Source: Parcubacteria group bacterium GW2011_GWC1_36_108 (GTDB lineage: Bacteria; Patescibacteriota; Minisyncoccia; Moranbacterales; GWC2-37-73). Taken from it: a stretch of 64,000 nt of DNA. The position numbers and the translations under genes were made by a program. The stretch covers positions 39,340-103,339 of the forward strand of contig LBRD01000006.1 in NCBI GenBank assembly GCA_000991245.1. Direction: 5' to 3'. Below are positions 34,693-53,966 of this stretch, one piece after another. Below the pieces are notes generated by a model that saw only the letters and a list, made by a program, of their open reading frames with translations, did not search any database and had not been told where the DNA came from. Each line of letters begins with the position of its first letter. Within the stretch, counting starts at the first letter, position 1.

Positions 34693-35886
34693 TTATTTTA
34701 TGATTTTTGTTGCAACTCCAGCACCAACAGTCTTTCCACCTTCGCGAATTGCGAATCTCATTCCTTCTGCCATAGCTACAGGAGCGATCAATTTGATAAC
34801 CAAGTTGATTGTGTCTCCAGGCATAACCATCTCAGTTCCTTCTGGAAGCACAACTTCTCCAGTTACATCAGTTGTTCGGATGTAGAATTGAGGTTTATAT
34901 CCTTTGAAGAATGGAGTATGTCGTCCACCTTCTTCTTTTGTCAAAATGTAAATTTCACCTTCGAATTCAGTATGAGGAGTGATTGAACCAGTCTTAGCCA
35001 AAACTTGTCCGCGTTCAACATCTTCCTTTTTAATTCCACGAATCAAAAGTCCAGCATTGTCTCCAGCTTGTCCCTTATCAAGTGATTTGTTGAACATTTC
35101 GATTCCAGTCACAACTGTTTTTGCAGTTGGACGAAGACCAACGATTTCAACTTCTTCATTGATGTTGATTGTTCCTGATTCGATTCTTCCAGTTACCACT
35201 GTTCCACGACCTTCAATTGAGAAGATATCTTCAATAGGCATAAGGAAAGGTTTTTCTGTTTCACGAACAGGTTCTGGAATTTGAGCATCCAAAGCAGCCA
35301 TAAGGTCATAGATTGGCTTCACAACTGCATCATCAATTGATTTTGCTGTCAAAGCTTGAGTTGCTGATCCACGGATAACTGCTGCGTTATCACCATCAAA
35401 TTCATATTTTGAAAGAAGTTCACGAACTTCAGCTTCAACAAGCTCAATAAGTTCCTCATCATCAACCATATCAACCTTATTGATGAAAACAACGATTGCA
35501 GGTACACCAATTTGTTTTGCAAGCAAGATGTGTTCACGTGTTTGAGGCATAGGACCATCAGTAGCAGAAACTACCAAGATTGCTCCATCCATTTGAGCAG
35601 CACCAGTAATCATGTTTTTGATGTAATCAGCATGTCCTGGGCAGTCTACGTGAGCGTAATGACGAACGTCTGTTTCGTATTCACAATGTGAAGTAGCGAT
35701 AGTAATTCCACGTTCTCTTTCTTCTGGAGCATTATCAATTTCACCAACTCCTCTTTCTTTTGCAAATCCTTTCAAAAATTGACCATGAAGAATAGCCGCG
35801 GTCAAAGTTGTCTTGCCGTGGTCAACGTGTCCAATTGTTCCTACGTTTACATGTGGTTTTGTTCGTTCAAACTTTTCTACTGCCAT
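34693..35886 (-). CDS. tuf: Elongation factor Tu
   Basis: [26 protein letters not shown]. Confidence 0.95.
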
Positions 35887-36223
35887 AGTGTTTTTTTCGC
35901 TATTCCCTGCGAGCTATTTTTGCTCAAGAGTGCGATTGTTTAAAGATGATTTATTATTTAATATAACATGGATTTACTCTTAATTGCAAATCCAAAAAAT
36001 TCCTTTTGCGGAAATTAGATACTTAATTACTTTACACGAATAGAAAATATCTGTCAAGGGCTGAAGATTAGCTTTTTAGGCATTAGCTTTTTAGCTTTTC
36101 AGTTAACGAATTTTTTGGCTTATTTAAAGCATCTTTTACAGATAATAGTTCATGCCAAATTCAAAATATCCACACATCTGCATAGTTATATATTGTTATT
36201 AAAATCATTGACTAAATATTGAT

Positions 36224-36259
36224 ACAAAAAGCTATCAACCCAATAAGGCCGATAGCTTT
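36224..36259 (-). terminator. Terminator for the coiled-coil gene
   Basis: AAAGCTATC...GATAGCTTT 9-bp stem, followed by a T-run on the minus strand. Confidence 0.6.
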
Positions 36260-36285
36260 ATAAAAGAAAGGTGTTTTTACTGTGC

Positions 36286-36642
36286 TTACTGAGAATATGA
36301 ATGTTTTTCCAGTTTGACGACGCGTTTTTCAAGTTTCTCAAATTGTTCAGCGTCAACCTTGCGTTTCAGTTCAAATTTCACCTCTACCATATCGTCTTGC
36401 AATCTGTCGATTTTTGTTTCGACTAATTCGAGTCGACCCTCAACACCACCAAGCCTAACTTCCACCTTTTCAAGTCTGTTCTCAACTTTTTCCAGCCTAT
36501 TATCTATACCATCAAGACGAACATTAGTCCCTGATTGAGCTTCAGCCAGTATCTTAATAGAATCATCCATTCTTTCAAGAATAGAGCCGATTTGATTTAC
36601 TGTGAAAACTTTTTCTTCTTTTGTTTGAGATGTATTTTTCAT
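36286..36642 (-). CDS. Hypothetical coiled-coil protein with RLEKVE-type heptad repeats
   Basis: IDNRLEKVENRLEKVEVRLGGVEGRLELVETKIDRL. Confidence 0.5.
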   Translation of the reverse strand: MKNTSQTKEEKVFTVNQIGSILERMDDSIKILAEAQSGTNVRLDGIDNRLEKVENRLEKVEVRLGGVEGRLELVETKIDRLQDDMVEVKFELKRKVDAEQFEKLEKRVVKLEKHSYSQ

Positions 36643-36681
36643 GTTTGTATTTTATAACTATAAATTAGGTGCGTCAAACCT

Positions 36682-36753
36682 GCCCCGTGAAATTGTTTAC
36701 CCTATTGAATTTATTTTATTCAATAGGGCGGTACTCAGCACTATTTCACTGGG
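36682..36753. other. Structured leader element, copy b (40 nt upstream of the coiled-coil gene)
   Basis: CCCCGTGAAAT...[CCCTATTGAAT-loop-ATTCAATAGGG]...ATTTCACTGGGG. Confidence 0.7.
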
Positions 36754-36764
36754 GTCAATTTTAA

Positions 36765-37031
36765 TCACTGCAAATAAGTTTTTGCTTCTTCGAGCGTTGC
36801 AATGAAATTTGCAGTGTGATCCTTAAAAATCATCACGCGATTGGTCACATTTTCACCCTTTTGATTCTTATACGAATCAGTAATGGTCAGATAGTTGCTA
36901 CCATTACTAGCTTTTTTCACATCAAAGAAATAATTTTTACCCCCAGCGCGCAGCATTTTTGAAAACACGCTTTCTTTGATTTTGTTTTCTCCGTTATAGG
37001 TGGCTGATTGGTTTTGATTTTGGTTATACAT
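36765..37031 (-). CDS. Small nucleic-acid-binding-like protein (PUR-alpha / DUF3276-like). Tentative.
   Basis: GGKNYFFDVKKASNGSNYLTITDS...RVMIFKDH...ATLEEA repeat pattern. Start trimmed to MYNQNQ. Confidence 0.3.
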   Translation of the reverse strand: MYNQNQNQSATYNGENKIKESVFSKMLRAGGKNYFFDVKKASNGSNYLTITDSYKNQKGENVTNRVMIFKDHTANFIATLEEAKTYLQ

Positions 37032-37328
37032 ATAAATTGACTTACAACTAACAATTCCCAACCAACAACACACTAATGCAAACTAGCTGCACACATGTAT
37101 TGTGGTTAAAAGTTATTAGTTATGAGTTGTGAATTATTGGTTGTTAGTTGTTTGTTATAAGTTGTTAGTTATTCATAAGCCTGGCCACTGCTCATAGTGA
37201 TATCATAGCACTTACCCAATATCACTGCAAGCATCAACGGCTGTGGATAACTTGGGGTAGGTTTTAGGTGTTAGGTTGTAGCTATTAGGTTTACAAAAAA
37301 ACAGCCCTTGCGAGCTGATTTTAGAGAT

Positions 37329-37349
37329 GGGTATTTAAATGGGTATTTA
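37329..37349. repeat. GGGTATTTAAAT(GGGTATTTA) near-palindromic motif, copy 1
   Basis: Direct reading. Confidence 0.8.
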
Positions 37350-37351
37350 TT

Positions 37352-37738
37352 TTATAAAGTCTCTATCCATTTGTCATCAATGAGTTTAAGCACTGACTGA
37401 CCACTGATTGGAATTTCATCCTCATTAAAATATGTGACATGAACTGCGGTCTCAGATGCAGAGCCTCCTGCAAGCCCCCTCGCTTTATAATCACCTTTTC
37501 TGATGTATGAATATTCCACGCTGCCTCCATCTTCTTGCGTAATTTTAATTTCCCAAAGATAAAGTCCTTGCTCATCTTCCAATTTACGACGAGTTTCAAA
37601 TTTAAGCTCACCCAATATTTTTTCAAATAATGAGCAAACCTCTTCCAAATTTGGAATATGCTCAGGAGTTGGAATATTTTCCGGTATAAAATTTTTAAGC
37701 GGTTCAGCAAATGGATTGTTTGAAAATTTTTCAGACAT
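37352..37738 (-). CDS. Hypothetical protein (island cassette gene)
   Basis: Start trimmed to MSEKFSNNPF. The ORF N-terminus MMIIVQLNTHLNTHL is a translation of the repeat motif. Flanked on both sides by the GGTGGGTATTTAAAT motif. Confidence 0.4.
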   Translation of the reverse strand: MSEKFSNNPFAEPLKNFIPENIPTPEHIPNLEEVCSLFEKILGELKFETRRKLEDEQGLYLWEIKITQEDGGSVEYSYIRKGDYKARGLAGGSASETAVHVTYFNEDEIPISGQSVLKLIDDKWIETL

Positions 37739-37758
37739 ATTTTTTTCTAAAATTTTTA

Positions 37759-37782
37759 GGTGGGTATTTAAATGAGTATTTA
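37759..37782. repeat. GGTGGGTATTTAAATGAGTATTTA motif, copy 2
   Basis: Direct reading. Confidence 0.8.
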
Positions 37783-37797
37783 ATTGCACAATAATCA

Positions 37798-38505
37798 TCA
37801 TTTCAGACCTATGATTGCAATCATCGCATCAACGAATGGCGTTTTATCCCTTCGAAAAGAGAACAGATTATCCGCTTCAAAAGTACAGGTCTCATTATTT
37901 TCAATATTGGTTTCTTTTATGCCCAGCCCCGTAAGTTGTTTTTTGATTATACTCTTGAGGTCTACAAACATTTTGCCGTCTCTTTTAGTGATAAATTCAT
38001 GATAATCCGCAAACGATTCCAACGCATCAGCCTTTATCTCAAAATGGCATTCATTTATTCCTGGTCCTAGTGCAACAAACAAATCATTTTTATTTCCACC
38101 CAAGCTTGAAATTCCATCCACTGTGTTTTTCAATACATCCCCAACAATACCTCTCCAACCAGCATGCGCAAGAGCAACAATTCCCTTTTCTTTTTCATAG
38201 AAAAATACCGGCACGCAGTCAGCAATCGTTATTGCAAGAAACGCGCCTTTTTCAGTTGTGATTAAGGCATCGGTCTTTGTGATGATTTTCGTTTCGGCAT
38301 CAGTCACAACTTCAACATGATTACCGTGAACCAAATTGGCACTGACCACCGCACCACCATCAATTCCAAACTTTTCAAAAAATAATTCTCGATTTTTCTG
38401 ATTTTTCCTTCTAATTGCCTCATCTGAAGCAATTCTCAATGAGCCGTCTTCCTTTTCGGACATAATAGCTGTGAGTTCGGGAAATTGTTCAAAAAAATTC
38501 AACAT
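37798..38505 (-). CDS. pgeF: YfiH/PgeF (DUF152) laccase-domain protein
   Basis: HGNHVEVV and CVPVFFYEKEKGIVALAHAGWRG. Confidence 0.8.
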   Translation of the reverse strand: MLNFFEQFPELTAIMSEKEDGSLRIASDEAIRRKNQKNRELFFEKFGIDGGAVVSANLVHGNHVEVVTDAETKIITKTDALITTEKGAFLAITIADCVPVFFYEKEKGIVALAHAGWRGIVGDVLKNTVDGISSLGGNKNDLFVALGPGINECHFEIKADALESFADYHEFITKRDGKMFVDLKSIIKKQLTGLGIKETNIENNETCTFEADNLFSFRRDKTPFVDAMIAIIGLK

Positions 38506-38526
38506 ATTATTTTAGCAGATAGGTGT

Positions 38527-39111
38527 TTAATTATCTATTATGACAAACTCATCTTCACGAATCGCATAGGCTGGTAATTTTTCTTTATAATCTTCCAACA
38601 TCTTAAATTTATCATCACCACTCATAGCAGCGTATTCTCCATTGGACATGTAATGCGTAATCATCTTAACTGACAAAAAATTCAAACCATCGAACACTCT
38701 ATCATAATCCTGATCATAATAATATTTGGCAAACACCAATGACCCAGCCGAAGAACCTATGACGATTTTATTCTCCAAGAGCTTTTCTGGGTCAGAAATC
38801 TCTTCCAATTTTTTCTGAAGCATCGGAGTGTCACCTCCCCTAAAATAAACAACTTCACATTTTTTTATTTGGTTGGCAAATTCAGATGGATTATCTGATG
38901 CCAAAATGTAATCAATATCCCAACGAGCCAAAACAAGCCTGAATCTTTTCGTTTCCAGCAAAAGATCTTCCCAATTTTCTTTAGGTCTAGCGAAAAATAC
39001 CAACAAGACTTTTGACTCTCTTGGAATCAAACTTAAGAGCTTCCAAAGATTGAAGTATTTCTTAATCGAGAATTTTTTTGTCGAGCCACCCTGCAGGATA
39101 TATTTTGTCAT
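38527..39111 (-). CDS. Peptidase S51 (PepE/cyanophycinase-like) family protein
   Basis: GGSTKK, VYFRGGDTPML, IGSSAGSLVF. Confidence 0.55.
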   Translation of the reverse strand: MTKYILQGGSTKKFSIKKYFNLWKLLSLIPRESKVLLVFFARPKENWEDLLLETKRFRLVLARWDIDYILASDNPSEFANQIKKCEVVYFRGGDTPMLQKKLEEISDPEKLLENKIVIGSSAGSLVFAKYYYDQDYDRVFDGLNFLSVKMITHYMSNGEYAAMSGDDKFKMLEDYKEKLPAYAIREDEFVIIDN

Positions 39112-39113
39112 AA

Positions 39114-39527
39114 TTATTTTTCTAAATTATCAACCAAAAACTTTTTCAAGCTCTCCAAATCTTTTCTCTCTGCGTCGTAAAAATATGTTTTAATGCCGAC
39201 TGACTCCGCGCTTTTGACGGCTTCGGCGCCATGTTCGAAATAAATGACATCATCTGCTTTTAGGTCAAAATGTTCCAGCATCATTTCATGGTATTTCGGA
39301 TCAGTCTTTTCGGGATCGTGTTTCAAAGTAAAAACTTCATATGGCGCATCATGCAGCTTGAATGTTTCCATCTGCTCATCATTTGCTCCGGTTAGAATTA
39401 TTTTCCTGTTTGGAAATTCCTCAAGAAGCTCGTGCATTTCTTCAAATACATTTCCATCTTCCTCGATTAATGTAAAAACCGCGTCTACTAAGATTGTTTT
39501 CATAGAATTTTTAATTATTTTTATCAA
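39114..39527 (-). CDS. Small HAD-superfamily hydrolase
   Basis: ILVDAVFTL (motif I-like), ILTGAND and a terminal D motif. Confidence 0.5.
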   Translation of the reverse strand: MIKIIKNSMKTILVDAVFTLIEEDGNVFEEMHELLEEFPNRKIILTGANDEQMETFKLHDAPYEVFTLKHDPEKTDPKYHEMMLEHFDLKADDVIYFEHGAEAVKSAESVGIKTYFYDAERKDLESLKKFLVDNLEK

Positions 39528-39792
39528 AGGTTGTGCCTAAAGTATACCCAATTATTCCACTAAATATCGTTGCAACCAATGAGCCTTCCAGTATTCCAAG
39601 AACAGCCAAGGCTAGCGTACCTATTGTTATAAATATAATTGCAACACTTTTTAAGGTATTATTTGGAGTAAGCCAATGCTTCAATTCGCCAGTAGTTGCC
39701 TTCATTGCCCACATTAAAGTAATCCACCAAATTGTAACTGCAGAAAATGGCACCACCAACATTATTAATAGTAACCAAAAGTTTTTTTCCAT
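39511..39792 (-). CDS. Small two-helix membrane protein
   Basis: Hydrophobic profile only. Confidence 0.35.
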   Translation of the reverse strand: MEKNFWLLLIMLVVPFSAVTIWWITLMWAMKATTGELKHWLTPNNTLKSVAIIFITIGTLALAVLGILEGSLVATIFSGIIGYTLGTTFDKNN

Positions 39793-39815
39793 ACTTCTTT
39801 AAATTAGTTTAAATA

Positions 39816-39992
39816 TTATTTCTTCCAATCTTTAATCTCAATTCCACCGTGGATTCTTTTAACTACGACTTTCTGTTTTGTTTTCCAACCCAATTCCCGC
39901 ACCATTTCAACTGGCAAAGTTAAACCAACTGACTGTTTGCCGATTTTGCACAGCTTGCGGATGTTTTTATCTTCTGATTTTCGAACTGCCAT
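39816..39992 (-). CDS. AbrB/MazE/SpoVT-fold small DNA-binding protein (58 aa). Not in the ORF track.
   Basis: Minus-strand translation MAVRKSEDKNIRKLCKIGKQSVGLTLPVEMVRELGWKTKQKVVVKRIHGGIEIKDWKK. The looped-hinge-helix pattern is typical of MazE/AbrB antitoxin-like proteins. Confidence 0.55.
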   Translation of the reverse strand: MAVRKSEDKNIRKLCKIGKQSVGLTLPVEMVRELGWKTKQKVVVKRIHGGIEIKDWKK

Positions 39993-40054
39993 ATGTTTTT
40001 TGCCATACCCTCGTTACAATATACTGAAATATTGTAATGAAGTCTGTATAATTT

Positions 40055-41008
40055 TTATTTTTTCAATAATAACAAAACAAGGCCAATAACTCTATCCTTG
40101 TCTTTTGGATTGCTTTCGGCAATAAGTAAAGTGAGTGCAGTAAGCGCTTCTGGGGTGATTTTTTTTCTGAAATCAAAACCAGCTTTTTGCAAAAACCAAA
40201 TAAAAGAAAACGCACCGCTTCTTTTGTTGCCATCAACAAATGGATGGTTCTTCACCACAAAATAAAGCAGATGCACAGCTTTTTCCTCGATTGTTGGATA
40301 CAAATCTTTTCCGCCAAAAGCCTGGAAAACATTTCCCACAATTCCAGCCAAACTGCTTCCCTTGCGCTCGATGGCAAAAATTTCAGTCGCCTGCCCTTTT
40401 CGAATAAGTTCTTTTTTGAGTTGTCCAATGGAATCTTCCAATTCTTCCCCGGTCAAAGCAACTTTCTTTTTTGTGGCGCCCTTAACTGGAAGCGCTTCTT
40501 TGTCATACGCATCCAATGAAAACCAGGTTCCTGCAAACATCTTCACGAGCTCCATCGCATCTCGAGCTGTGATACGGTCGTCCGACGGAAGCAACTTTTT
40601 TGTCTCCTCAACTGCAATCAAAAACTTTTCGTAATTTTGTTCAATACGGGAAGGGTTGATTACAAAGCCATTCGTAATATAGTTACGAAGAATTTTAGAA
40701 GCCCACTTTCTAAAAATTATAGCATTGCTGGAATTTGCCCTATATCCCACAGCCAGAATCATATCCAGTGAGTAAAACGACACCGGCTTATCAGAATTTG
40801 CAATGTGCATTTTTTGCACATTGCTTTTTTCATCAACTTCTTTGTTTTTTAAAATATTACCAATATGCTTTGTGACTACTGATCTTTCTAGATTAAAAAC
40901 GTCGGCGATCTGTTGCTGAGATGCCCAGATTGTTTCTTTTTTCGCATCAACAGAAAGCTCAATAGCTCCATTTTTCGCTTGATAAATTTCAATGTTTTTT
41001 TGTTTCAT
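40055..41008 (-). CDS. Fic/Doc-family protein of the RhuM type
   Basis: C-terminal HPFVDGNKRSGAFS (the Fic motif HPFx[DE]GNxR). N-terminal RhuM-like IEIYQAKNGAIELSVD...TIWASQQQIADVF. Confidence 0.75.
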   Translation of the reverse strand: MKQKNIEIYQAKNGAIELSVDAKKETIWASQQQIADVFNLERSVVTKHIGNILKNKEVDEKSNVQKMHIANSDKPVSFYSLDMILAVGYRANSSNAIIFRKWASKILRNYITNGFVINPSRIEQNYEKFLIAVEETKKLLPSDDRITARDAMELVKMFAGTWFSLDAYDKEALPVKGATKKKVALTGEELEDSIGQLKKELIRKGQATEIFAIERKGSSLAGIVGNVFQAFGGKDLYPTIEEKAVHLLYFVVKNHPFVDGNKRSGAFSFIWFLQKAGFDFRKKITPEALTALTLLIAESNPKDKDRVIGLVLLLLKK

Positions 41009-41045
41009 TTTTTAATGAATTATTGATTATAATGATATTATATCA

Positions 41046-41054
41046 CTATATATT
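41046..41054 (-). promoter_or_regulatory. Candidate extended -10 (TGATATAAT) for the Fic gene
   Basis: Minus strand reads TAGTGATATAAT about 38 nt upstream of the ATG. Confidence 0.35.
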
Positions 41055-41093
41055 TTTTATGCAATACCTAACATATTTTTTATATTAGTATTT

Positions 41094-41115
41094 AATACCT
41101 ATTTAAATACCCACC
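41094..41115. repeat. Motif copy 3, opposite orientation (AATACCTATTTAAATACCCACC)
   Basis: Direct reading. Confidence 0.8.
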
Positions 41116-41215
41116 TCGTCGCAACTGCTTCAAGTTTACTCCTATAATCCTTGATATTCAAGCATTAAAAAAGGACCGGAAAATACTATTTCCCGGTCCT
41201 GAGGCGTTGTGTGAT

Positions 41216-41404
41216 TTATTCACTGTACGATTTAAGCAATCTTGCCATCGCCCTGTGCCCGTCTGGATCGTACCTGCGATGGATCGCAGCTAGACGCCTA
41301 GTAACGTCAACACCTTCCAAAACTTTACGTCTGTCTGTTGCAGCAGCCAATGCCCAACTGAAGTTTTTGGCTCTTGGTTTTTCAGGAACTTTTTCTTTAC
41401 TCAT
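41216..41404 (-). CDS. Small basic Ala/Arg-rich protein (62 aa). GC-rich cassette gene.
   Basis: GGGAGG RBS 7 nt upstream of the MSKEKVPEKP start. Overlaps the stop of the upstream ORF (ATGA). Confidence 0.3.
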   Translation of the reverse strand: MSKEKVPEKPRAKNFSWALAAATDRRKVLEGVDVTRRLAAIHRRYDPDGHRAMARLLKSYSE

Positions 41405-41421
41405 TTTAATCCCTCCCATCT

Positions 41422-41637
41422 TCATGGCCAAGCATTTAATATTGTCTGGATTTCAGACTCCCGACATCCAAGACAATTTCCTTGACCACCACAGGTGCAA
41501 ACCCCATAATCAGGGTCGTTACGCATACGAGGCATTTCATCTGCATTCTTTCTGCAAAATCGTGCTAGCTCAAGATTCACAGTGTATGCTTGTTTTTTTT
41601 CTGGTTCAGCTTGAAATCCACGACATCCGCAATGCAT
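41422..41637 (-). CDS. Small Cys-rich protein (71 aa). GC-rich cassette gene.
   Basis: AGGAGGTG RBS immediately upstream of MHCGCRGFQ. The sequence contains CGC, CRK and CTCGGQGNCLGC. Confidence 0.3.
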   Translation of the reverse strand: MHCGCRGFQAEPEKKQAYTVNLELARFCRKNADEMPRMRNDPDYGVCTCGGQGNCLGCRESEIQTILNAWP

Positions 41638-41664
41638 AACCCACCTCCTGTGTTTTTTGTATAG

Positions 41665-41680
41665 ATTTAAATACCCACCC
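41665..41680. repeat. Motif copy 4, opposite orientation (GATTTAAATACCCACC)
   Basis: Direct reading. Confidence 0.8.
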
Positions 41681-41731
41681 AACCCAAGTCTAAACCTAAA
41701 CTGATATTTGGACAAGAAAAAGGGTTCTTTT

Positions 41732-42307
41732 TCACATGAACACATTTTCTGCATTGTTTCTATCGCGATGCCACATTTCGGGATTGATTTTTATGTATTC
41801 TCTGATTTTATTCAGTGATTCGTCGTCGCGAATTATGTGATCATAGAAACGAGGCTGCCAAGCAAAATTCATAGTTTGACCAATATGATTTATTTCAAAT
41901 GAACATCGACCCTTATACCATCTAATTATTTTTGACAAAGAATATGGGTTATTCATAGGATTATTTTTTCCCGTGATACCACCCGTAGAGACGCGATTAA
42001 TCGCGTCTCTACGCATTGCCATGTTAATATCATTTTTGCAAATTTCAATTATCCCATGAACATGATTAGGCATCACAACAAATTCATCCAAAACAATAAA
42101 TGGAAAATGATCTGGAATTCCCTTCCAACATTCTTCTGCGATTTTTCCAATTTTATTCAACACCATTTTTCCATCCACAATCTCGCCAAAAAATTCCTCG
42201 CGATTTTTTGTGCAGATAGTCACGAAATACATCCCATTTTGAGAATAATCATAACCCTCTAATCTTGCAGATTTAATTGTGTATTTATTTTTAAATTTTT
42301 CTTGCAT
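41732..42307 (-). CDS. HuH tyrosine transposase, IS200-like / REP-associated (RAYT) type
   Basis: HuH motif MPNHVHGII and a downstream IIRWYKGRCS (Y-KG-S pattern). No tnpB partner. REP-like palindromes sit inside the gene and upstream. Confidence 0.65.
   Translation of the reverse strand: MQEKFKNKYTIKSARLEGYDYSQNGMYFVTICTKNREEFFGEIVDGKMVLNKIGKIAEECWKGIPDHFPFIVLDEFVVMPNHVHGIIEICKNDINMAMRRDAINRVSTGGITGKNNPMNNPYSLSKIIRWYKGRCSFEINHIGQTMNFAWQPRFYDHIIRDDESLNKIREYIKINPEMWHRDRNNAENVFM
41985..42012. repeat. REP-like 28-bp perfect palindrome GTAGAGACGCGATTAATCGCGTCTCTAC (copy inside the RAYT coding sequence, in frame)
   Basis: Direct reading. Identical to the copy at 42400-42427. Confidence 0.85.
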
Positions 42308-42399
42308 TTTTGTTTATTTTATATATCCATTATTGCATAAAAATTAATATAACAAAAAACGATTTCATTAGGAAATCGTTTTTTGTATAGAAACGTTGC

Positions 42400-42427
42400 G
42401 TAGAGACGCGATTAATCGCGTCTCTAC
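42400..42427. repeat. REP-like 28-bp palindrome, second copy, between fusA and the RAYT gene
   Basis: Direct reading. Confidence 0.85.
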
Positions 42428-42440
42428 CACAAATTGAAAT

Positions 42441-44534
42441 TTATTTTTTAGCAATAATCTCATCAGCAACATTCTTTGGAACTTCTGAATAATTTGAAAA
42501 TTCCATTGAATAACTGGCGCGTCCTTGAGTCATTGATCGCATTTGAGTTGCGTAACCAAACATATTTGCAAGAGGAACTTCTGATTCAATTTCTTTCACG
42601 CGAGCGTTTCCTTCTCCGCGATCATTGATTTCTTTGATCATTCCACGACGTGAGTTGATGTCACCAACAATGTCTCCCATAAATTGTTCTGGGCAAGTCA
42701 CTACCACTTTCATGATAGGTTCAAGAATAACTGGGTTGGCGCGCTTTACTGCTTCCTGCACTGCCATTGAACCAGCGATTTTGAAAGCTGCTTCGTTGGA
42801 GTCAACTTCATGGAAGGATCCGTCATACAAAGTTACAACCACATCAACCATTGGATATCCAGCCAAAACTCCATTTTCCAAAGCTTCCTTGGCTCCAACA
42901 GAAATAGGTTTGATGTATTCTTGTGGAATAACACCACCTTTAATTTCGTCAAAGAATTCAAAGCCTTTACCTTTTTCTTCTTGAGGACGAACTTTAAGCC
43001 AACAATGACCATACTGTCCGCGACCTCCAGATTGTTTAACATATTTTCCTTCAGCTTGAGCTTCAGCTTTGATTGTTTCGCGATATGCAACTTGAGGCTG
43101 ACCGATATTTGCTTCAACACCAAATTCTCGTTTCATACGATCAACAATAATATCAAGATGAAGTTCACCCATTCCTGAGATAATCGTTTGTCCTGATTCT
43201 TCATCAGTGCGAAGTCGTAGTGTTGGGTCTTCGCCAGCAAGTTTGCGAAGAGCAACTCCCATTTTTTCTTGATCAGCTTTTGTCTTTGGTTCAACTGCAA
43301 TATCAATCACAGGTTCTGGGAAAACAATATTTTCAAGTTGAATTGGGTTTGCTTCATCACAAAGAGTGTCTCCAGTTGTTGTATTCTTAAGTCCAACCAA
43401 AGCTCCAATTCCACCAGCGCGAATCTCATCAATTTCTTCACGATGATTTGCATGCATTTGAAGAATTCGTCCAATTCTTTCTCTTTCTCCATTGGTTGAA
43501 TTGATAACATATGAGCCAGCTTTAAGTGTTCCTGAATATACGCGGAAGAATGTTAGTTGTCCTACAAATGGATCAGTTGCGACTTTGAAAGCCAAAGCAG
43601 AAAATGGTTCGTTGTCATCAGCGTGACGTTCAATTTCCAATTCTGTTTTTGGATCAATTCCTTTGATAGAAGTAACATCCAATGGAGATGGAAGATAATC
43701 AACCACAGCATCCAAAACTAATTGCACACCTTTGTTACGAAGAGCAGTTCCAGTAAAAACTGGCACAAGTTTTGCATCGATAACTCCTTGGCGTAGTGCA
43801 ACTTTCAATTCATCAATAGAAATTTCCTCTCCGTTTAAATATTTTTCAGTCAAAGCATCATTGGTTTCAGAAACTTTTTCAATCATTTTTTCTCTCCAAG
43901 CTTGCGCCTTTTCCAAAAGCTCTGCAGGAATTTCACTTTCAACCACGATTTCACCCATCGGACCATCAAAAGAATATGCTTTCATTTTGATCAAATCAAC
44001 CACGCCAGAAAAATCATTACGTTCTCCGATTGGCATTTGAAGAGCGATTGCATTTGGGGTTAAACGATTCCAAATTGAATTGATCACGTAATCAAAATCA
44101 GCACCTTCTTTGTCAATCTTATTGATAAAACAAATTCGAGGCACCTTATATTTGTCAGCTTGACGCCAAACAGTTTCAGATTGTGGCTCAACACCTTCTT
44201 TACCATCAAAAATAACAACAGCACCATCAAGCACTCGTAGTGAGCGTTCAACTTCTACTGTGAAGTCCACATGTCCCGGGGTGTCAATAATATTAATTGG
44301 ATGACCCTTCCAGAAACATTTGGTTGCAGCGGATGTGATGGTGATTCCACGCTCCTGTTCTTGAGCCATCCAGTCCATTGTGGCTGAGCCATCATGAACT
44401 TCACCAATCTTATGAGTGATTCCAGTATAAAACAAAATACGCTCAGTGGTTGTTGTTTTTCCACCGTCGATATGAGCAATAATACCAATATTTCTTAATT
44501 TTGCGATTTCACTTTCTGTGGATACTATAGACAT
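42441..44534 (-). CDS. fusA: Elongation factor G
   Basis: [20 protein letters not shown] and a full five-domain length (697 aa). Confidence 0.95.
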
Positions 44535-44675
44535 AAAGATAAATTTAACTTTTTATTTAATTTAGTTTGATCCAGTTTATAGCAAATGTCCCAACTAATG
44601 TACGAATAAATTACTAATATACTAATAGGGTTTGTACATTAGTATATTCGTAAAAGATTCGTATTTTAGCGGGGA

Positions 44676-45143
44676 TTAAGCGAAATGAGCAAACGCTTTG
44701 TTTGCTTCAGCCATTCGGTGAGTATCGTCACGCTTTTTCATTGCAGATCCAACTTTATTTGATCCATCAATAAGTTCATCAGCGAGTTTTTCAGCCATTC
44801 TTTTTCCTTTCTTAGCCCGACATGCTGTCAAAATCCATCTAACTGCAAGTGTTTGACGACGTTCTCCAGAAACTTGAATCGGAACTTGATAGTTTGCGCC
44901 ACCAATTCTTTTTGATTTAAGTTCAAGTAGTGGAGAAATATTTTTAATTGCTTGTTCAAAAACATTAAGACCACCTTTTTTGGTTCGTTCGTGAATCACA
45001 TCAAAACAATCATAGATCACTCTTTCTGCAACACTTCTTTTTCCGTCTTGCATCACGTTACCAATAAAGCGTCCCACCAAAATGTTTCCATATCGTGAGT
45101 CTGGTTTCCATTGTTTTACAAATGTTCGTTTTCTTCGTGCCAT
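44676..45143 (-). CDS. rpsG: Ribosomal protein uS7
   Basis: Conserved uS7 sequence. Confidence 0.95.
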   Translation of the reverse strand: MARRKRTFVKQWKPDSRYGNILVGRFIGNVMQDGKRSVAERVIYDCFDVIHERTKKGGLNVFEQAIKNISPLLELKSKRIGGANYQVPIQVSGERRQTLAVRWILTACRAKKGKRMAEKLADELIDGSNKVGSAMKKRDDTHRMAEANKAFAHFA

Positions 45144-45328
45144 ATATGCAATTAATTTTTAATTTTGTAATTTTATAATTTTTAAATAATTTCTAATTTA
45201 TAAATGTTTAAACATTAAAAATTTTGATTTATTTATAAAATTAAAAATTGTAAAAATTAAAAATTGTAAGTCCTAATCTTTAATTATAATATATTTAATT
45301 CAGATATCTTTTTTATAAATCCAGCTAA

Positions 45329-45751
45329 CTACTCTGTTTTTGCCTTTGGACGTTTTGCGCCATATTTAGAGCGAGATCGATTTCTTCCCTCAACTCCAGC
45401 ACTGTCCAAAACTCCGCGAACAATGTGATATCGAACACCAGGAAGATCTTTCACGCGTCCTCCGCGAATCATAACGATTGAATGTTCTTGCAAATTGTGT
45501 CCAACTCCTGGAATGTATGCGGTAACTTCCATTCCGTTTGTTAATCGAACTCTAGCAATCTTTCGAAGAGCAGAGTTAGGTTTCTTTGGAGTGGTTGTGC
45601 TTACCTTAATACAAACTCCTCGCTTAAAAGGGTTTACAGTTTTCTTTGGCTTATTTTGCAAAGTGTTAAAAGTCATTGTCATTGCTGGCGACTTTGTTTT
45701 CTTCACTGCTGATTTTCGGCTTTTTTTCACTAACTGATTTATTGTTGGCAT
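45329..45751 (-). CDS. rpsL: Ribosomal protein uS12
   Basis: PTINQLVKK...[10 protein letters not shown]. Confidence 0.95.
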
Positions 45752-49289: not shown

Positions 49290-49625
49290 TTATTTCTTTT
49301 CTGTTGAAGTTGTAGTGATAACCTCTTTTACTATTTCATCTCCCTTCTTTTTCTTTTCAACTTTGAAAATTCTGGCCAAATACAAAGAAATAGCCACGAC
49401 AGCGACTGTCACAATAGTGGCATATAGAAATTTAGCCTTAAGCCCATCCCCCGGTTCAGCAAAAAATCTCTCGATGAAAGCTTTAATAGCATCATTCCAA
49501 GCAAGACCCGCCACGAGTCCAAAACTGGTAATGATATATCCCAAGGTTTTTTCGCGAATCTCTCTTTCAAGTTCCGCACCCTTGTCCTTTATTGTGACTA
49601 TTTTTTCAGTAATTTTTTTCATCAT
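49290..49625 (-). CDS. Small protein with a C-terminal transmembrane helix (hypothetical)
   Basis: Charged N-terminal half and a hydrophobic helix LYATIVTVAVVAISLYLA. Preferred over the antisense plus-strand ORF. Confidence 0.35.
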   Translation of the reverse strand: MMKKITEKIVTIKDKGAELEREIREKTLGYIITSFGLVAGLAWNDAIKAFIERFFAEPGDGLKAKFLYATIVTVAVVAISLYLARIFKVEKKKKGDEIVKEVITTTSTEKK

Positions 49626-49683
49626 GGTTTAGTTTACGCGGTTTATATCAGCTTTCTTTCAAAAATATATTACACAAGTCACT

Positions 49684-49750
49684 CGAATACATTTTTCTTT
49701 TTGTCCCGTGGAAGTACTCTTCCAAGCGAAAAAAGAAAAAGTATTCTCGC
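49684..49750. repeat. Hairpin repeat R2, inverted copy
   Basis: CGAATACATTTTTCTTTTTG-[CCCGTGGAAGTACTCTTCCAAGC]-GAAAAAAGAAAAAGTATTCTCG is the reverse complement of 50696-50767. Confidence 0.8.
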
Positions 49751-49761
49751 TCCAACTTTTG

Positions 49762-50424
49762 CTAAAATAATCGACTTGCGGGTTTTTCAAAAGTCATCTT
49801 ACGATAAACGTCGCGAGTAGTTTGCACGTCGCGTTTGCAATATTCCAAAATGTCATTCACTTTTCCATCGGCAAAAAATTGAGCAACTTGCGATCCATCA
49901 ATGCCATCTTTTGGCGAAGGAATGTCGAGAGCTAGTGCCAAATATTCCAAACCAATACTTGAATTTGACCATTTTACCCACTCCTTCATCGTGTCATAAA
50001 TTGGATAACCTCTGTAGCGTGCAAAGTTCAATTCATATGCAGGTTTAACTCCAAGCACAATTGAGCGTTGATAGATGAAGCGCAAATCAAAATCCATCAC
50101 ATTGTGCCCGATAAATTGCAGATCATAATCTGGATATTGCATATTGCGCGGAGTCGAACTAAGCGCATCAACCAAATGCCAAAATTGCTGCAGGGTTTCC
50201 TTTTCGTTATTTTCGTTATAAAAATTTTGCGGCGCATCGTCGTCCACAGCATATCCAATGCAAAGGATTCTTCCAAAAGCTCCGTCAAAGTTTGTCTTTT
50301 GAACAAATTCATCGAATTTTTCCTGATCAAATTCAGGATTTTTTTTATCAAAAAGAAGTCGCAATGTTTCCATTTTGCTTTCTTCAGCCGGCAAAGTTTC
50401 AATATCCAAAAATAGTTTTCGCAT
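49762..50424 (-). CDS. RNase H-fold 3'-5' exonuclease related to the PolB exonuclease domain (COG3298-like)
   Basis: Exo I LFLDIETLP, Exo II FIGHNVMDFDLRF, Exo III YCKRDVQTT. Confidence 0.6.
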   Translation of the reverse strand: MRKLFLDIETLPAEESKMETLRLLFDKKNPEFDQEKFDEFVQKTNFDGAFGRILCIGYAVDDDAPQNFYNENNEKETLQQFWHLVDALSSTPRNMQYPDYDLQFIGHNVMDFDLRFIYQRSIVLGVKPAYELNFARYRGYPIYDTMKEWVKWSNSSIGLEYLALALDIPSPKDGIDGSQVAQFFADGKVNDILEYCKRDVQTTRDVYRKMTFEKPASRLF

Positions 50425-50471
50425 AAATATTTTTTCAATGATTACCTAGATAGTATAACACAAAAGACTCT

Positions 50472-50767
50472 TTTCCACATTTCTTTTTCCGCAAAAGAAA
50501 CGTGGAGCAAAGAAAACTCGCACCTGATGAAGGTACTGTGGCAAAAACTTCGCTCTTCGCTAAAATTTACACTTCGCGCCTACGCTTGCTAGCGGGCGCT
50601 ACGTTTTAAAATTTCTTAACGCGAAATCGCTTGTTTTTCGCCTACGTACTTCATATGGTGCAAAGGGAATGCGGGATGCAAATGCAACTAAGTAAGAGTG
50701 AGAATACTTTTTATTTTTTCGCTTGGAAGAGCACTTCCACGGGAAAAAATAAAAATGTATTCGAACG
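50472..50767. repeat. Composite intergenic repeat element (R1 module, 92-nt insertion, R2 hairpin module)
   Basis: Homologous at roughly 85-90% identity to 54661-54892 apart from the insertion. Confidence 0.8.
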
Positions 50768-50837
50768 ACACAAAAAATATAACTACGCTACACTAAATTA
50801 GAAAACAATAAAAAAACATTTCCCAAAGAAAATGTTT

Positions 50838-51548
50838 TTAGAGAACTTTCAATTGTTTTACAATCCTTTCATATTCAGGGATTGTCTGACCAACGAGATT
50901 CCAGAAACGCTTGCCGTGGTTAAATTCTTTCAAATGGCAAAGCTCATGAACGATAATGTAATCCGCGTGGCGTTGCGGCAAAAGCAAAATCTTGTAATTA
51001 AAATTCAAATTGCCCTTTGAAGAACATGAGCCCCAACGAGTTTTTTGATTTCTAATTGCAACCCCATTATATTGAAAACCATAAAATTCAGCATACTTTT
51101 CCAAACGACTTTTTACCATTTCGCGAGCAGTTTCCTTAAGTTTCAGATATTCAGCTTGATCATGACGTGCAAAAAGACTATTTCGTCCGATTTTTTTCAT
51201 GGTCTTCATTTTTTCAAGCACCCACTCAGCATTTTTTCGGATAAAATCATCAGCGCTAACAAACCCCATGCGCCATGGCAAGGTTACAGTACAATTTCCA
51301 TCACAAGAAATGACTAATTTAAGCCTTTTTGCGGTTCTGTGCTTTCTTACGGTATATTCAATTTTCTCGCTTCGCAGCGTCATTTTTTTCTGAATAGTCA
51401 TCTTGGTTTCATCAACTGGTTTATTGTTTTCTTCATCAATATCAAGCCAATCTTGCAATGAAATACCCTCTTTTAAGGAAAAACTTTCCCCAAAATTGGT
51501 TAGGTTTGACAAATATACATTAAAATGTTTTAATATGTATTTTTTCAT
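50838..51548 (-). CDS. YgjP-like (DUF45) metal-dependent hydrolase
   Basis: HELCHLKEFNHGKRFWNLV (HExxH plus a downstream H). Confidence 0.65.
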   Translation of the reverse strand: MKKYILKHFNVYLSNLTNFGESFSLKEGISLQDWLDIDEENNKPVDETKMTIQKKMTLRSEKIEYTVRKHRTAKRLKLVISCDGNCTVTLPWRMGFVSADDFIRKNAEWVLEKMKTMKKIGRNSLFARHDQAEYLKLKETAREMVKSRLEKYAEFYGFQYNGVAIRNQKTRWGSCSSKGNLNFNYKILLLPQRHADYIIVHELCHLKEFNHGKRFWNLVGQTIPEYERIVKQLKVL

Positions 51549-51735
51549 GAGCCTGTTTAAAATCTCATGCCTTGATAAAATGTTCTGATTTCGAGCGAAA
51601 ACCGTGAAAAGCGAGGAGGGCTATCGAGATAACCCGACGAGTTTTGAGCGGTTTGCAGCCGAAATCAGGACATTTTAGCAGGCAAGCGATGTAATTCCGA
51701 CCCTACATAAGAGCGATGAGACTTTAAACAGGCTC

Positions 51736-52950: not shown

Positions 52951-53084
52951 TAGGATTTAGGAATTAGGAGTTAGAATTTGGAAGTTAGGGCATTAATAAG
53001 TATTGTTAGAGGTCAGTTTATATTAATACGAAAACAGCATTAACTTTCTTTAATATGCTCCAATCATAGCAAAATTAAGGCAAA

Positions 53085-53121
53085 GAAAAAAGGGGCGTCG
53101 CATTTATTGCAAACACCCCTT
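53085..53121 (-). terminator. Terminator for the 90-aa gene
   Basis: AAGGGG...CCCCTT stem, with a T-run on the minus strand. Confidence 0.5.
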
Positions 53122-53212
53122 ATATTTTATCCATTACTTTTTAAGTAATACGCCTCCTTGTAATTGGCGCCGCCATATCTGCATTGTGGTGCAGACTGAC
53201 TGGGATAAAAAA

Positions 53213-53485
53213 TTACGAAATAATCAGCTGAGAACACTGCCTCTGAAGATTGTTTGGCAGCGGCACATTGAGCTCCCTGAATCTTTTTACGGTAGTGATA
53301 ATATTTTTCAAGATTGGAACAATGTTGCGTCGCCCTATTCTTTTTGCTTTATCAAGCTTTGCGAGATTGTTATGAAGATTTTGACGCATTTTTCCGAGTT
53401 CACGATTTTCGATTTTGGCAACTATTGCTTGCCTTGCCAATCCTGGATCCCCAACAAAAGAAATCTGTTGCTTGAACATAATCAT
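53213..53485 (-). CDS. Hypothetical 90-aa protein
   Basis: AAGGGGGAA RBS upstream of the ATG and a terminator downstream. Confidence 0.4.
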   Translation of the reverse strand: MIMFKQQISFVGDPGLARQAIVAKIENRELGKMRQNLHNNLAKLDKAKRIGRRNIVPILKNIITTVKRFRELNVPLPNNLQRQCSQLIIS

Positions 53486-53945: not shown

Positions 53946-53966
53946 AATCTTCCTAATACCTAATAC

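Follow-up and report, generated by a model that had tools for sequence, protein, structure and literature searches.

Gene layout between fusA and tuf

The window, i.e. the whole 64-kb stretch of DNA that was analysed, belongs to a Candidatus Moranbacteria (Patescibacteria) genome from Rifle groundwater. Its minus strand carries rpsL, rpsG, fusA, twelve ORFs, tuf, rpsJ and rplC, with the twelve co-oriented ORFs separating fusA from tuf, as the first-pass annotation had stated. An identical tuf was found on 24 independently assembled contigs (JGI, NCBI and ENA assemblies; contigs supporting the arrangement reach about 156 kb); the arrangement was the same in all four places shown, and a further 18 contigs were classed as similar to one of these. 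The heterogeneous functions previously assigned to the twelve genes agree with Pfam, in which two small genes (g10 and g11) have no family match. In the direction of transcription, the features are:

42441-45751, minus, rpsL-rpsG-fusA, conserved left flank, syntenic wherever a relative's contig reaches
45329-45751, minus, rpsL (gene layout)
44676-45143, minus, rpsG (gene layout)
42441-44534, minus, fusA
42400-42427, no strand, copy 1 of the GTAG-type REP palindrome, its start 13 nt past the fusA stop
42352-42386, minus, hairpin terminator with a 15-bp stem, in place of the usual fusA terminator
41732-42307, minus, RAYT-like Y1 (HUH) transposase, Y1_Tnp (Pfam PF01797, 36.7 bits)
41985-42012, REP palindrome, copy 2, in frame within the RAYT ORF, encoding RDAINRVST
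41665-41715, minus, module head A, predicted promoter (TTGTCC, 17 nt, TAGACT, then TTGGGTGGGTATTTAAAT)
41172-41637, minus, small-gene module (g11, g10, strong terminator), GC 43-45%
41422-41637, minus, g11, Cys-rich small gene with a good Shine-Dalgarno site
41216-41404, minus, g10, small gene with a good Shine-Dalgarno site
41088-41161, minus, module head B, predicted promoter (TTGAAT, 17 nt, TAAACT, 16 nt, then AGGTGGGTATTTAAATAGGTATT)
40055-41008, minus, RhuM-Doc/Fic fusion (Pfam RhuM and Fic; Doc motif HPFVDGNKR at residue 255)
39816-39992, minus, AbrB/MazE-like gene (Pfam), next after RhuM-Doc/Fic
37798-39792, minus, enzyme block comprising the next four genes
39511-39792, minus, small membrane protein
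39114-39527, minus, HAD-like, weak (Pfam)
38527-39111, minus, Peptidase_S51 (Pfam)
37798-38505, minus, PgeF/Cu-oxidase_4 (Pfam)
37352-37738, minus, orphan gene g3, within 37324-37785, bracketed by two reversed motif copies
37295-37317, minus, fusA-type terminator hairpin CAGCTCGCAAGGGCTG-T7 at the far end of the cargo
37241-37253, minus, invariant TTATCCACA box inside AAGTTATCCACAG, conserved upstream of DUF3276
37198-37230, minus, predicted DUF3276 promoter
36765-37073 (36765-37031 as a conserved resident), minus, DUF3276/PUR-like gene (Pfam)
36286-36642, minus, coiled-coil protein, weak DUF7310 (Pfam)
34693-36131, minus, conserved right flank (tuf and leader)
36066-36099, minus, tuf upstream repeat
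36029-36057, minus, predicted, conserved tuf promoter (TTGACA-17-TAAAGT)
34693-35886, minus, tuf

Terminator-like hairpins lie on the gene strand at 42352-42386, 41172-41200 and 37302-37317, so the stretch does hold terminators of its own, as annotated. Given the terminators after fusA and the conserved tuf promoter, fusA and tuf are predicted to be separate transcription units, and the site would therefore be an operon boundary rather than the interior of a core translation operon, where the annotation had placed it. No tRNA or Rfam family was found anywhere in the 64-kb window.

The patches of deviating GC reported earlier shrink to the two small genes, which span ~0.5 kb (43-45% versus 36%). 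Elsewhere the composition of the cargo is native, and the tetranucleotide distance along the island stays between -1.2 and +0.7 sd of the window. A search of the tuf and fusA borders found no direct repeat or target-site duplication, and none of the 12 genes matched an integrase or any other recombinase in the profile searches (Pfam, NCBIfam). Since the composition is native and a target-site duplication was not found, recent foreign integration is not indicated.

Conserved residents and variable cargo in related genomes

We compared the locus with 12 relatives whose EF-G or EF-Tu is 87-99% identical. The rpsL-rpsG-fusA and tuf-S10 flanks recurred wherever a contig reached, with one exception (L086), whereas each distinct relative examined had a different interval content, no two being alike, contrary to the refuting case named at first pass, in which all relatives would share one gene set. 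Because most relatives' contigs stop inside the slot, only six intervals, window included, could be followed end to end (EF-G 89-100%, genus level). In relatives with both flanks, DNA homology ends at the fusA stop codon (42441/42433); beyond it, the sequences match again only at the DUF3276 gene (36985), at the coiled-coil gene and at the tuf leader. The relatives' intervals contain:

L124/125 (EF-G 98.6%), MNT-HepT, 190-aa gene, head A with small genes, head B with hydrolase
L085 (EF-G 98%), DUF3276, coiled-coil, 170-aa gene; cargo-poor
L093 (EF-G 98%), two ORFs, head B with AbrB, AAA ATPase, S51, PgeF
L118 (EF-G 97%), reversed ORF, head with 57-aa gene, g11' and g10'
L088 (EF-G 97%), eight other genes, DUF3276 and coiled-coil among them
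L126 (EF-G 96.7%), reversed ORF, head B with AbrB and HAD
L086 (EF-G 95%), PilM-like, 636-aa gene, then infA
L087 (EF-G 94%), GNAT, cupin, NUDIX, SNase and others
L089 (EF-G 90%), MNT-HepT
L090 (EF-G 89%), DUF5655, MNT-HEPN, Alr, EamA
L114 (EF-Tu 97%), Fic-AbrB, 610-aa TPR protein, DUF3276, two other genes

The DUF3276/PUR-like and coiled-coil genes, each with its own predicted promoter, are present in all six end-to-end intervals (besides the window, L085 and L087-L090), and DUF3276 also in L114. What had been described as a twelve-gene island of roughly 6.5 kb is indeed variable, but these two residents are conserved and the lineage-specific cargo amounts to only about 5.1 kb (about 37326-42432) and ten genes. 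Nor is a normal fusA-tuf linkage broken specifically here, as had been supposed: it is interrupted in every relative examined, and fusA-tuf gaps of 0.5-5 kb with lineage-specific genes are common in Patescibacteria, versus 33-200 bp in most other bacteria in the same search. The split is old in the clade and common in Patescibacteria. Turnover is visible only between species-level relatives (fusA DNA 82-89% identical), because the 24 population contigs are identical.

Shared modules recur among relatives in new combinations, with breakpoints at a repeated motif (see below). The small-gene module, which had only 8 matches among 1.84 billion representative proteins, has homologues in the same slot of L118 (60% and 71%) and L124 (g10, 46%). 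The Fic-AbrB pair is found in L114 (99% and 93% identical), and L001 carries a 58% identical Fic downstream of fusA. S51-PgeF recurs in L093 (79% and 75%) and HAD in L126 (83%), there directly after AbrB. The terminator at 37295-37317 aligns with the single terminator directly 3' of fusA in cargo-poor L085, and similar terminators occur at both ends in L089, L090 and L093; it may be the displaced fusA terminator or a second copy of it.

Repeated motif, predicted promoter heads and the RAYT/REP unit

The sequence GGTGGGTATTTAAAT, annotated as a 16-bp near-palindrome, follows two repeated predicted promoter heads that start several units. Within the window, TGGGTATTTAAAT occurs in exactly four copies, all inside the island as claimed (37328+, 37761+, 41101- and 41665-), but only its 10-bp core TATTTAAATA is palindromic; the motif is built as a direct 12-nt tandem repeat. 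Every forward copy is part of a longer conserved head resembling a promoter, in which a -10-like hexamer precedes the copy by 5-16 nt (by 42 nt in L118). Elsewhere, head A was found before a RhuM-like gene (L115) and a g11/g10-like module (L124). Head B stands before AbrB in both L093 and L126, before Fic in L100 and before an alpha/beta hydrolase in L124. Four unrelated genes are preceded by head B and two by head A. A generic sigma-70 scan showed no enrichment of the region (40 sites versus 36 expected). The motif pattern was present in 29 metagenome stretches, several of which are the same slot in relatives. Most likely, the motif marks a transcription start region, as a candidate operator-like site whose 12-nt units are repeated in tandem and have TATTTAAATA as their palindromic core. 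The window and L093 also hold two copies each that point against the gene direction and have no promoter part; the operator/promoter reading leaves these four unexplained. Those in the window (37758-37785 and 37324-37352) surround g3; in L093 the order is PgeF, reversed motif, terminator, and this locus therefore lacks exactly the stretch between the two reversed copies.

Alternatively, the motif might be a site-specific recombination site and the island a cassette array served by a recombinase encoded elsewhere, like integrons or Xer-dependent dif modules. Indeed, it sits at every module junction in the window, L093, L124 and L126, the stretch gained or lost with g3 runs exactly from one direct copy to the other, and in the window and L093 alike the copies are forward on the cargo's 5' side and reversed on its 3' side; it also marks a second variable spot in L111 (~1.8 kb, versus ~0.76 kb at 52967-53724 of the window). 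However, the island and its neighbourhood carry no recombinase gene, the direct 12-nt repeat differs from the two-arm inverted-repeat architecture of attC or dif, and the position of forward copies after a -10-like hexamer fits a transcription-start or operator element. Ordinary homologous recombination also explains a deletion between direct repeats equally well, and we consider such a cassette array unlikely.

The REP-like palindromes noted at first pass were confirmed: GTAGAGACGCGATTAATCGCGTCTCTAC is a perfect 28-bp palindrome with two copies in the window versus 0 expected. It is absent from the relatives' loci examined and recurs only in contigs of the window's own population, and at the hairpin position relatives instead have CAGCCTCGCAAGAGGCTG-T7. 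The RAYT scores 73.5 bits against NCBIfam REP_Tyr_transpos, below the cut-off of 80, and the HxH, Y, N and P columns of its alignment are invariant. Together with the two GTAG palindromes, it appears to form a separate small REPtron-type insertion seen only in this lineage.

Could this transposase, or a lost integrase, have inserted the whole stretch site-specifically at the fusA 3' end as a single mobile element? A Y1 HUH gene with intact HxH and Tyr abuts fusA, behind a palindrome that begins just past the fusA stop, and the cargo genes are all co-oriented. Yet L093, L114, L118, L124 and L126 lack both RAYT and palindrome over the DNA examined despite common cargo modules, and since relatives without RAYT still carry other modules, it cannot simply be taken for the integration machinery. 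In addition, the second palindrome lies within the RAYT ORF instead of at the far end of the cargo, and RAYTs are known from the literature as single-copy domesticated genes acting on REPs, not cargo carriers (PMC5581495; PMC3733652). Considering also the native composition, the missing recombinase and the borders devoid of target-site duplication or attachment-type repeat, such an element is distinctly improbable.

Gene turnover at a probable operon boundary and comparison with known systems

With a probability of about 0.65, we interpret the fusA-tuf interval as a long-standing gene-turnover hotspot at the boundary of the rpsL-rpsG-fusA and tuf-S10 transcription units, which retains from the annotated integration hotspot the rapid turnover between syntenic core genes. 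DUF3276 and the coiled-coil gene would already have separated fusA from tuf in the ancestor of the genus, leaving a permissive slot between the fusA stop/terminator and the DUF3276 promoter. This slot would gain, lose and exchange transcription units that are complete in themselves, each with a promoter head, one to six genes and a terminator; here, these would be a REPtron (GTAG palindrome, hairpin, RAYT gene), the two small GC-richer genes, RhuM-Doc with its AbrB-type partner followed by membrane protein, HAD, S51 and PgeF, and one orphan gene. We infer that cargo is swapped between related cells by homologous recombination anchored in the very conserved fusA on one side and DUF3276, coiled-coil gene and tuf on the other. 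Within the slot, the repeated promoter heads of 50-80 nt that end in GGTGGGTATTTAAAT could recombine with one another and so reshuffle the cargo, and similar terminators possibly also recombine. The RAYT/REP unit would be an independent small insertion at the fusA 3' end, in the usual terminator's place.

Should the twelve genes be nothing special, but an ancestral, vertically inherited part of the clade's ribosomal gene neighbourhood, their native composition, their co-orientation with the flanks, the two genuinely conserved residents and the identical population contigs would all be expected. The comparison with relatives contradicts this and makes it highly improbable: for 10 of the 12 genes, most relatives (EF-G 89-99%) carry nothing equivalent in this interval, those that recur do so in different combinations, and identity to the best non-self homologue is no higher than 69% for RAYT and 75% for PgeF, though relatives with EF-G at 90-99% are plentiful. 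The chance that metagenome mis-assembly joined the island to fusA and tuf, a general concern with metagenome-assembled genomes, is negligible given the four concordant places from separate assemblies, the 18 similar contigs and the related modules in the same slot of relatives from other sites.

Among known systems, the RhuM-Doc/Fic gene, an RhuM N-terminal domain fused to a Doc-type Fic, matches the PADLOC candidate defence family PDC-S23 over its full length (E = 1e-103) and scores 38.0 against TIGR01550, just below the cut-off of 38.65. With the adjoining small AbrB-fold gene, a toxin or defence role is a candidate function; the AbrB-type gene lies downstream, separated by a 9-bp inverted repeat (40014-40037), whereas the corresponding gene of phd-doc lies upstream. 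REPtron systems (Nunvar 2010, PMC2817692; Di Nocera 2013, PMC3733652; Bertels 2017, PMC5581495) share the RAYT-type Y1 HUH transposase, the GTAG-tagged perfect palindrome beside the gene and the location of REPs within about 20 bp of the upstream ORF's 3' end. Here, however, there are just two palindromes in 64 kb, one of them in frame inside the RAYT ORF, nothing in the window points to a REP or REPIN population, and the RAYT falls under the NCBIfam cut-off. Integron cassette arrays likewise have co-oriented small modules in a row, a short sequence recurring at junctions and single-gene units present or absent between two repeat copies, but intI is absent here, the repeat lacks the imperfect inverted structure of attC and the modules bear their own promoter-like heads and terminators. 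The heads also recall the putative mobile promoters of Matus-Garcia et al. 2012 (PMC3488235), in which highly similar 50-80 nt promoter regions are reused before non-homologous genes within and between related genomes; the heads described here differ in being concentrated in one hotspot, in ending in a specific 12-nt tandem motif and in being accompanied by reversed, promoter-less motif copies. Finally, hotspots that lack recognisable mobile elements but show recombination at the core genes on either side form a recognised class (Oliveira et al. 2017, PMC5635113). The interval resembles these in its turnover bounded by syntenic core genes, in having no recognisable integrative element and flanks suited to homologous recombination, and in its abundance of toxin-antitoxin, defence-like and small accessory genes. 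It differs in that turnover, in the one interval examined, is between species of a genus rather than strains, and in lying within the very conserved str-S10 ribosomal neighbourhood of a small-genome Patescibacteria lineage: an ordinary, known kind of recombination hotspot in an unusual location.

Gene content of the fusA–tuf interval

Every gene of the region is carried on the minus strand, and twelve ORFs separate fusA from tuf, as the first-pass annotation, made from the sequence alone, had proposed. The gene layout and the population contigs bear this out, and Pfam, NCBIfam and PADLOC agree with the gene labels assigned there. Read in the direction of transcription, the region comprises:

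45329–45751, minus strand: rpsL
44676–45143, minus strand: rpsG
42441–44534, minus strand: fusA (EF-G); after its stop codon a REP palindrome and a hairpin terminator with a 15-bp stem
41732–42307, minus strand: Y1 HUH transposase of the RAYT type; then promoter-like head A
41422–41637 (g11) and 41216–41404 (g10), minus strand: two small genes without family; then a strong terminator and promoter-like head B
40055–41008, minus strand: RhuM-Fic (RhuM-Doc) fusion, Doc-type catalytic motif HPFVDGNKR at residue 255
39816–39992, minus strand: AbrB/MazE-fold protein, 58 aa
minus strand, next in order: membrane protein (93 aa), HAD hydrolase (weak match), S51 peptidase and PgeF; then a reversed copy of the junction motif
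37352–37738, minus strand: orphan gene g3, most probably translated from the ATG at 37738; then a second reversed motif copy, a fusA-type terminator (37295–37317) and the DUF3276 promoter
minus strand, next in order: DUF3276 (PUR-like) protein and coiled-coil protein (weak DUF7310 match)
34693–35886, minus strand: tuf, then rpsJ and rplC

The source population belongs to Candidatus Moranbacteria (Patescibacteria) from Rifle groundwater, in which an identical EF-Tu is encoded on 24 contigs from separate assemblies. Four places shown, together with 18 further contigs grouped as similar, share the arrangement of the window, and no locus variants were seen within this population (24 contigs with identical EF-Tu, four places shown). 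Since separately assembled contigs carry the same arrangement, the junctions of the interval are real.

The RhuM-Doc protein matched PF02661 and PF13310 as well as PDC-S23, a PADLOC candidate defence family, over its full length (residues 1–316, E = 1e-103). Judging from their families, this protein and its AbrB-type partner are a candidate toxin–antitoxin or abortive-infection-type pair, while PgeF, the S51 peptidase, the HAD hydrolase and the membrane protein look like housekeeping accessories related to the cell wall or to peptides. In the gap that separates the Fic stop from the start of the AbrB-like gene there is a 9-bp inverted repeat (TTACAATAT N6 ATATTGTAA, 40014–40037), conserved in the relative L114 and a candidate operator for the AbrB-type protein. 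Doc, as characterised, phosphorylates EF-Tu and so inactivates it; here the Doc-like gene lies about 4 kb upstream of tuf, between the genes for EF-G and EF-Tu, a placement that is probably a coincidence.

The GC-richer patch at 41000–41750 consists of the two small ORFs, which have strong ribosome-binding sites, homologues in the same slot of L118 and L124, and a few distant homologues (for g11, only 8 matches among 1.84 billion representative proteins). A non-coding RNA in this patch was rejected, as no tRNA, tmRNA or Rfam family was found in the window.

Variable cargo between conserved flanks

We compared 12 distinct relatives drawn from three sources: species-representative genomes, a series of EF-G homologues from 99% to 79% identity with their contigs, and contigs recovered by the junction motif. 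As far as the contigs reach, rpsL-rpsG-fusA and/or tuf-rpsJ-rplC flank the interval in these relatives, with L086 as the sole exception. The content in between differs in each of the 12, none of which matches the window or any other relative. Their cargo is likewise rich in small modifying enzymes, nucleases and MNT-HEPN pairs, and includes an OLD-like ATPase.

Table. Interval content in relatives (identity of EF-G unless stated)
Relative; identity; content
L124/125; 98.6%; MNT-HepT, 190-aa gene, small genes, alpha/beta hydrolase
L085; 98%; only DUF3276, coiled-coil and 170-aa gene
L093; 98%; two ORFs, AbrB, AAA ATPase, S51, PgeF
L118; 97%; reversed ORF, 57-aa gene, homologues of the two small genes
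L088; 97%; eight other genes
L126; 96.7%; reversed ORF, AbrB, HAD
L086; 95%; two genes, then infA-rpmJ-rpsM
L087; 94%; GNAT, cupin, NUDIX, SNase
L089; 90%; MNT-HepT
L090; 89%; DUF5655, MNT-HEPN, alanine racemase, EamA
L114; EF-Tu 97%; Fic-AbrB, 610-aa TPR protein, DUF3276, two other genes
L001; 87%; 622-aa gene, 141-aa gene, Fic

DNA homology to the relatives ends at the fusA stop codon; in the rest of the interval it is confined to DUF3276 (36985), the coiled-coil gene and ~230 nt of tuf leader. Because homology resumes there, the DUF3276 and coiled-coil genes count as residents of the interval that are conserved across the genus, and an invariant predicted promoter region lies upstream of them. 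The lineage-specific cargo is therefore smaller than the 6.5-kb island of twelve genes first described: it spans about 37326–42432, about 5.1 kb, and comprises ten genes. Nor is the split of fusA from tuf an event of this genome, as had been supposed. In the same search, gaps of 0.5–5 kb with lineage-specific genes were common among Patescibacteria, so the split is old and clade-wide; most other bacteria had a gap of 33–200 bp. Among the patescibacterial gap genes are some for pilin-like and for large surface proteins, and one for a small conserved protein next to tuf on its upstream side. The latter, a different gap resident (N-terminus about MSKQLKQVINLAKKTGDRIIVFD), was observed directly upstream of tuf in other Patescibacteria lineages (L004 3897–4319; L005 13420–13713; L006 5729–6010; L019 12753–13127).

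Two further signals were noted beside the resident genes and tuf. A perfect DnaA-box-like TTATCCACA within AAGTTATCCACAG (37241–37253), invariant in six out of six genomes (alignment A3), is located shortly before the -35 element of the conserved promoter of DUF3276 (37198–37230) and hints at DnaA-linked control of this PUR-like gene. In addition, the window and three relatives share a ~30-nt repeat, AAGCTAA(A/G)AAGCTAATGCCTAAAAAGCT, ahead of the tuf promoter; about 10–15 nt (9 nt in the window) separate it from the -35, and L087 has a more diverged copy. Further copies, in either orientation, were seen between other genes of the ribosomal cluster and, in L001 and L086, immediately behind fusA (window 36066–36099 (-), 24447 (-) and 24502 (+); L085 13918; L088 15796; L090 19914; L001 7114; L086 5863/10193/11267).

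Gene order in the ~10 kb flanks of the relatives, to which this comparison was confined, is mostly conserved, with smaller differences such as an SNF2/ABC insertion upstream in L089/L090. A second variable spot was observed where L111 is collinear with window 49353–56185: window 52967–53724 (about 0.76 kb) corresponds to L111 3674–5490 (about 1.8 kb), with the GGTGGGTATTTAAAT motif at the junction. In L086 (3753–14663; GCA_028715015.1), fusA is followed by a PilM/FtsA-like gene, a 636-aa gene and infA-rpmJ-rpsM-rpsK-rpsD-rpoA-rplQ; this place lacks tuf and the entire S10-spc cluster, which indicates a larger rearrangement at the same boundary.

Composition, module junctions and the RAYT gene

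The composition of the cargo is native. Indeed, the tetranucleotide distance of the interval ranges from -1.2 to +0.7 sd of the window and GC skew is unchanged across it, on which grounds we rejected compositional foreignness; of the patches of deviating GC noted previously, only the two small genes stand out (43–45% vs 36%). No direct repeat, whether attL/attR or target-site duplication, is common to the two borders (about 42432 and about 37326). Searches with Pfam, NCBIfam and PADLOC revealed no integrase, serine recombinase or DDE transposase in the interval, the RAYT-type Y1 gene being the only such candidate, and no tyrosine recombinase, intI included, is encoded in the interval or the immediately adjacent genes. 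Of the traits expected of an integrated element, be it an ICE, IME, prophage or transposon, these searches found no enzyme able to move the unit, no border repeats and no foreign signal in composition or in matches to phages and viral contigs. A phage or virus origin was rejected, as viral contigs held no relatives of g11 or the RAYT, and a search of 5.2 kb of cargo against 50,697 phage records gave no DNA match.

Modules of the cargo reappear in relatives, in other combinations. The Fic and AbrB genes are 99% and 93% identical in L114, but other genes come next; AbrB is joined directly to HAD in L126; and L093 combines AbrB with an ATPase, S51 and PgeF. Orphan g3, missing from L093, is exactly the stretch between the two reversed motif copies. 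The motif itself, TGGGTATTTAAAT, previously reported as four copies of a 16-bp near-palindrome, indeed has exactly four copies in the window, all inside the interval and two per strand. Three of these continue into a second half unit shifted by 12 nt, and at the junctions the motif takes the form of 12-nt units repeated directly in tandem, placed after a -10-like hexamer at the module 5' end. Heads A and B are predicted promoter-like units of 50–80 nt, built of TTGTCY or TTGAAT, 17 nt, TAGACT or TAAACT, 5–16 nt and GGTGGGTATTTAAAT. In relatives, head B precedes AbrB (L093, L126), a hydrolase (L124) or Fic (L100), and head A precedes a RhuM-like gene (L115) or a g11/g10-type module (L124); in the more distant contigs L106, L113 and L123 the motif directly follows a TATAAT box. 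From this arrangement we infer that the motif may be a transcription-start-proximal operator of 12-nt units with a palindromic TATTTAAATA core.

Several other roles for the motif were considered. A dif/Xer site was rejected, because the two halves are direct repeats and not inverted arms, as was a general promoter of the genome, since the remaining ~58 kb of the window carry no copy. An obligatory partnership with the AbrB-like protein is unsupported, as this protein is encoded at only 4 of the 15 motif-bearing loci checked (part of 29 metagenome stretches plus L093, many of them short). It is also conceivable, albeit unlikely, that the motif is the recombination site of a novel cassette system, a reading kept alive by the reversed, promoter-less copies.

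The terminators noted in the first-pass annotation correspond to three terminator-like hairpins on the gene strand. In relatives, the terminator CAGCCTCGCAAGAGGCTG-T7 directly follows fusA; in the window, the REP and a different hairpin occupy this place and a fusA-type terminator lies at the far end of the cargo. It could be either the displaced fusA original or a second copy, since L089, L090 and L093 carry a terminator of this type at both ends.

The REP-like palindromes likewise proved real, as two copies of a perfect 28-bp palindrome, GTAGAGACGCGATTAATCGCGTCTCTAC, which begins with GTAG as does the GTAG class of REPs. One starts 13 nt after the fusA stop and lies 92 nt upstream of the RAYT start; the other (41985–42012) lies inside the RAYT ORF rather than downstream of it, in frame, and encodes RDAINRVST. 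RAYT genes flanked or overlapped by REPs are known from the literature as "REPtrons" (PMC3733652). As no further copies occur in the 64-kb window or the relatives' loci examined, but only in the population contigs L081, L082 and L084, a REP population is not visible. In alignment A2, RAYT homologues from other phyla (Melainabacteria, Bacteroidota and Omnitrophota) carry RDAINRVST, sometimes in tandem, and others have VETQFIAS, VETHFNAS or VETQNFAS at this place. Back-translation of these peptides suggests that the VETQFIAS type may be the GTAGAGACGC...GCGTCTCTAC stem read in another frame, which would mean that a DNA/RNA hairpin is conserved, not a peptide.

Even though the RAYT has the features of a Y1 HUH transposase (HxH and catalytic Tyr; H82, H84, Y171, N175 and P176 invariant in the alignment; PF01797 above cut-off, NF047646 at 73.5 bits with a cut-off of 80), it is very improbable that it integrated the island. 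Relatives share modules without it, L118 and L124 carrying the small-gene module without any RAYT; its closest homologue is only 69% identical; the second hairpin lies inside the gene; and RAYTs count as domesticated genes present in single copy (PMC5581495). The integration hotspot proposed initially is thus supported in part: turnover is seen in the 12 differing relatives, but the split is old, two genes are residents, the composition is native, and nothing indicates that the transposase assembled the island.

Gene turnover at an operon boundary

The best-supported reading is that the fusA–tuf interval is a gene-turnover hotspot of the kind outlined by Oliveira et al. (PMC5635113), namely an interval between conserved core genes, without recognisable integrative element, that is diversified by recombination. 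The flanking core genes are conserved and syntenic, and the accessory content differs across related genomes. The slot is an operon boundary, with terminators after fusA and predicted conserved promoters of their own for DUF3276 and tuf, so insertions should be tolerated. Cargo could be exchanged by homologous recombination, with fusA as anchor on one side and DUF3276, the coiled-coil gene and tuf on the other, and the repeated heads and similar terminators may serve as internal substrates for shuffling. More speculatively, and with a low probability in our estimation, Moranbacteria might possess an integrase-less cassette system, in which modules headed by a family of GGTGGGTATTTAAAT-ending promoters/operators are moved, swapped or deleted at few slots, mainly fusA–tuf, the motif being both the control site of a lineage-wide accessory-gene regulator and a recombination substrate.

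Patescibacteria have tiny genomes; few integrases or classical islands are known from them, and the routes by which they gain and rearrange accessory genes are poorly understood. The hotspot offers a concrete, easily located slot, anchored by two of biology's most conserved genes, in which toxin–antitoxin/defence-like modules and small enzymes turn over between species. As fusA and tuf assemble well and are easily found, accessory gene flux in uncultured Moranbacteria can be sampled there from metagenomes. It follows for the superphylum that fusA–tuf adjacency is an unsafe assumption. The modular promoter-head structure deserves further attention, the repeated heads making transcription control open to testing in organisms without genetics.

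Compared with known systems, the arrangement differs from an integron cassette array in two respects. An integron carries an attC-type imperfect inverted repeat at the 3' end of each promoter-less cassette, whereas here a 12-nt direct repeat lies at the module 5' end; and intI with attI and Pc adjoins an integron array, whereas here intI is absent from the interval and adjacent genes. Our literature searches found no description of a fusA–tuf hotspot. Hotspots flanked by core genes are known as such; this one lies at an unusual site and in a poorly known group.
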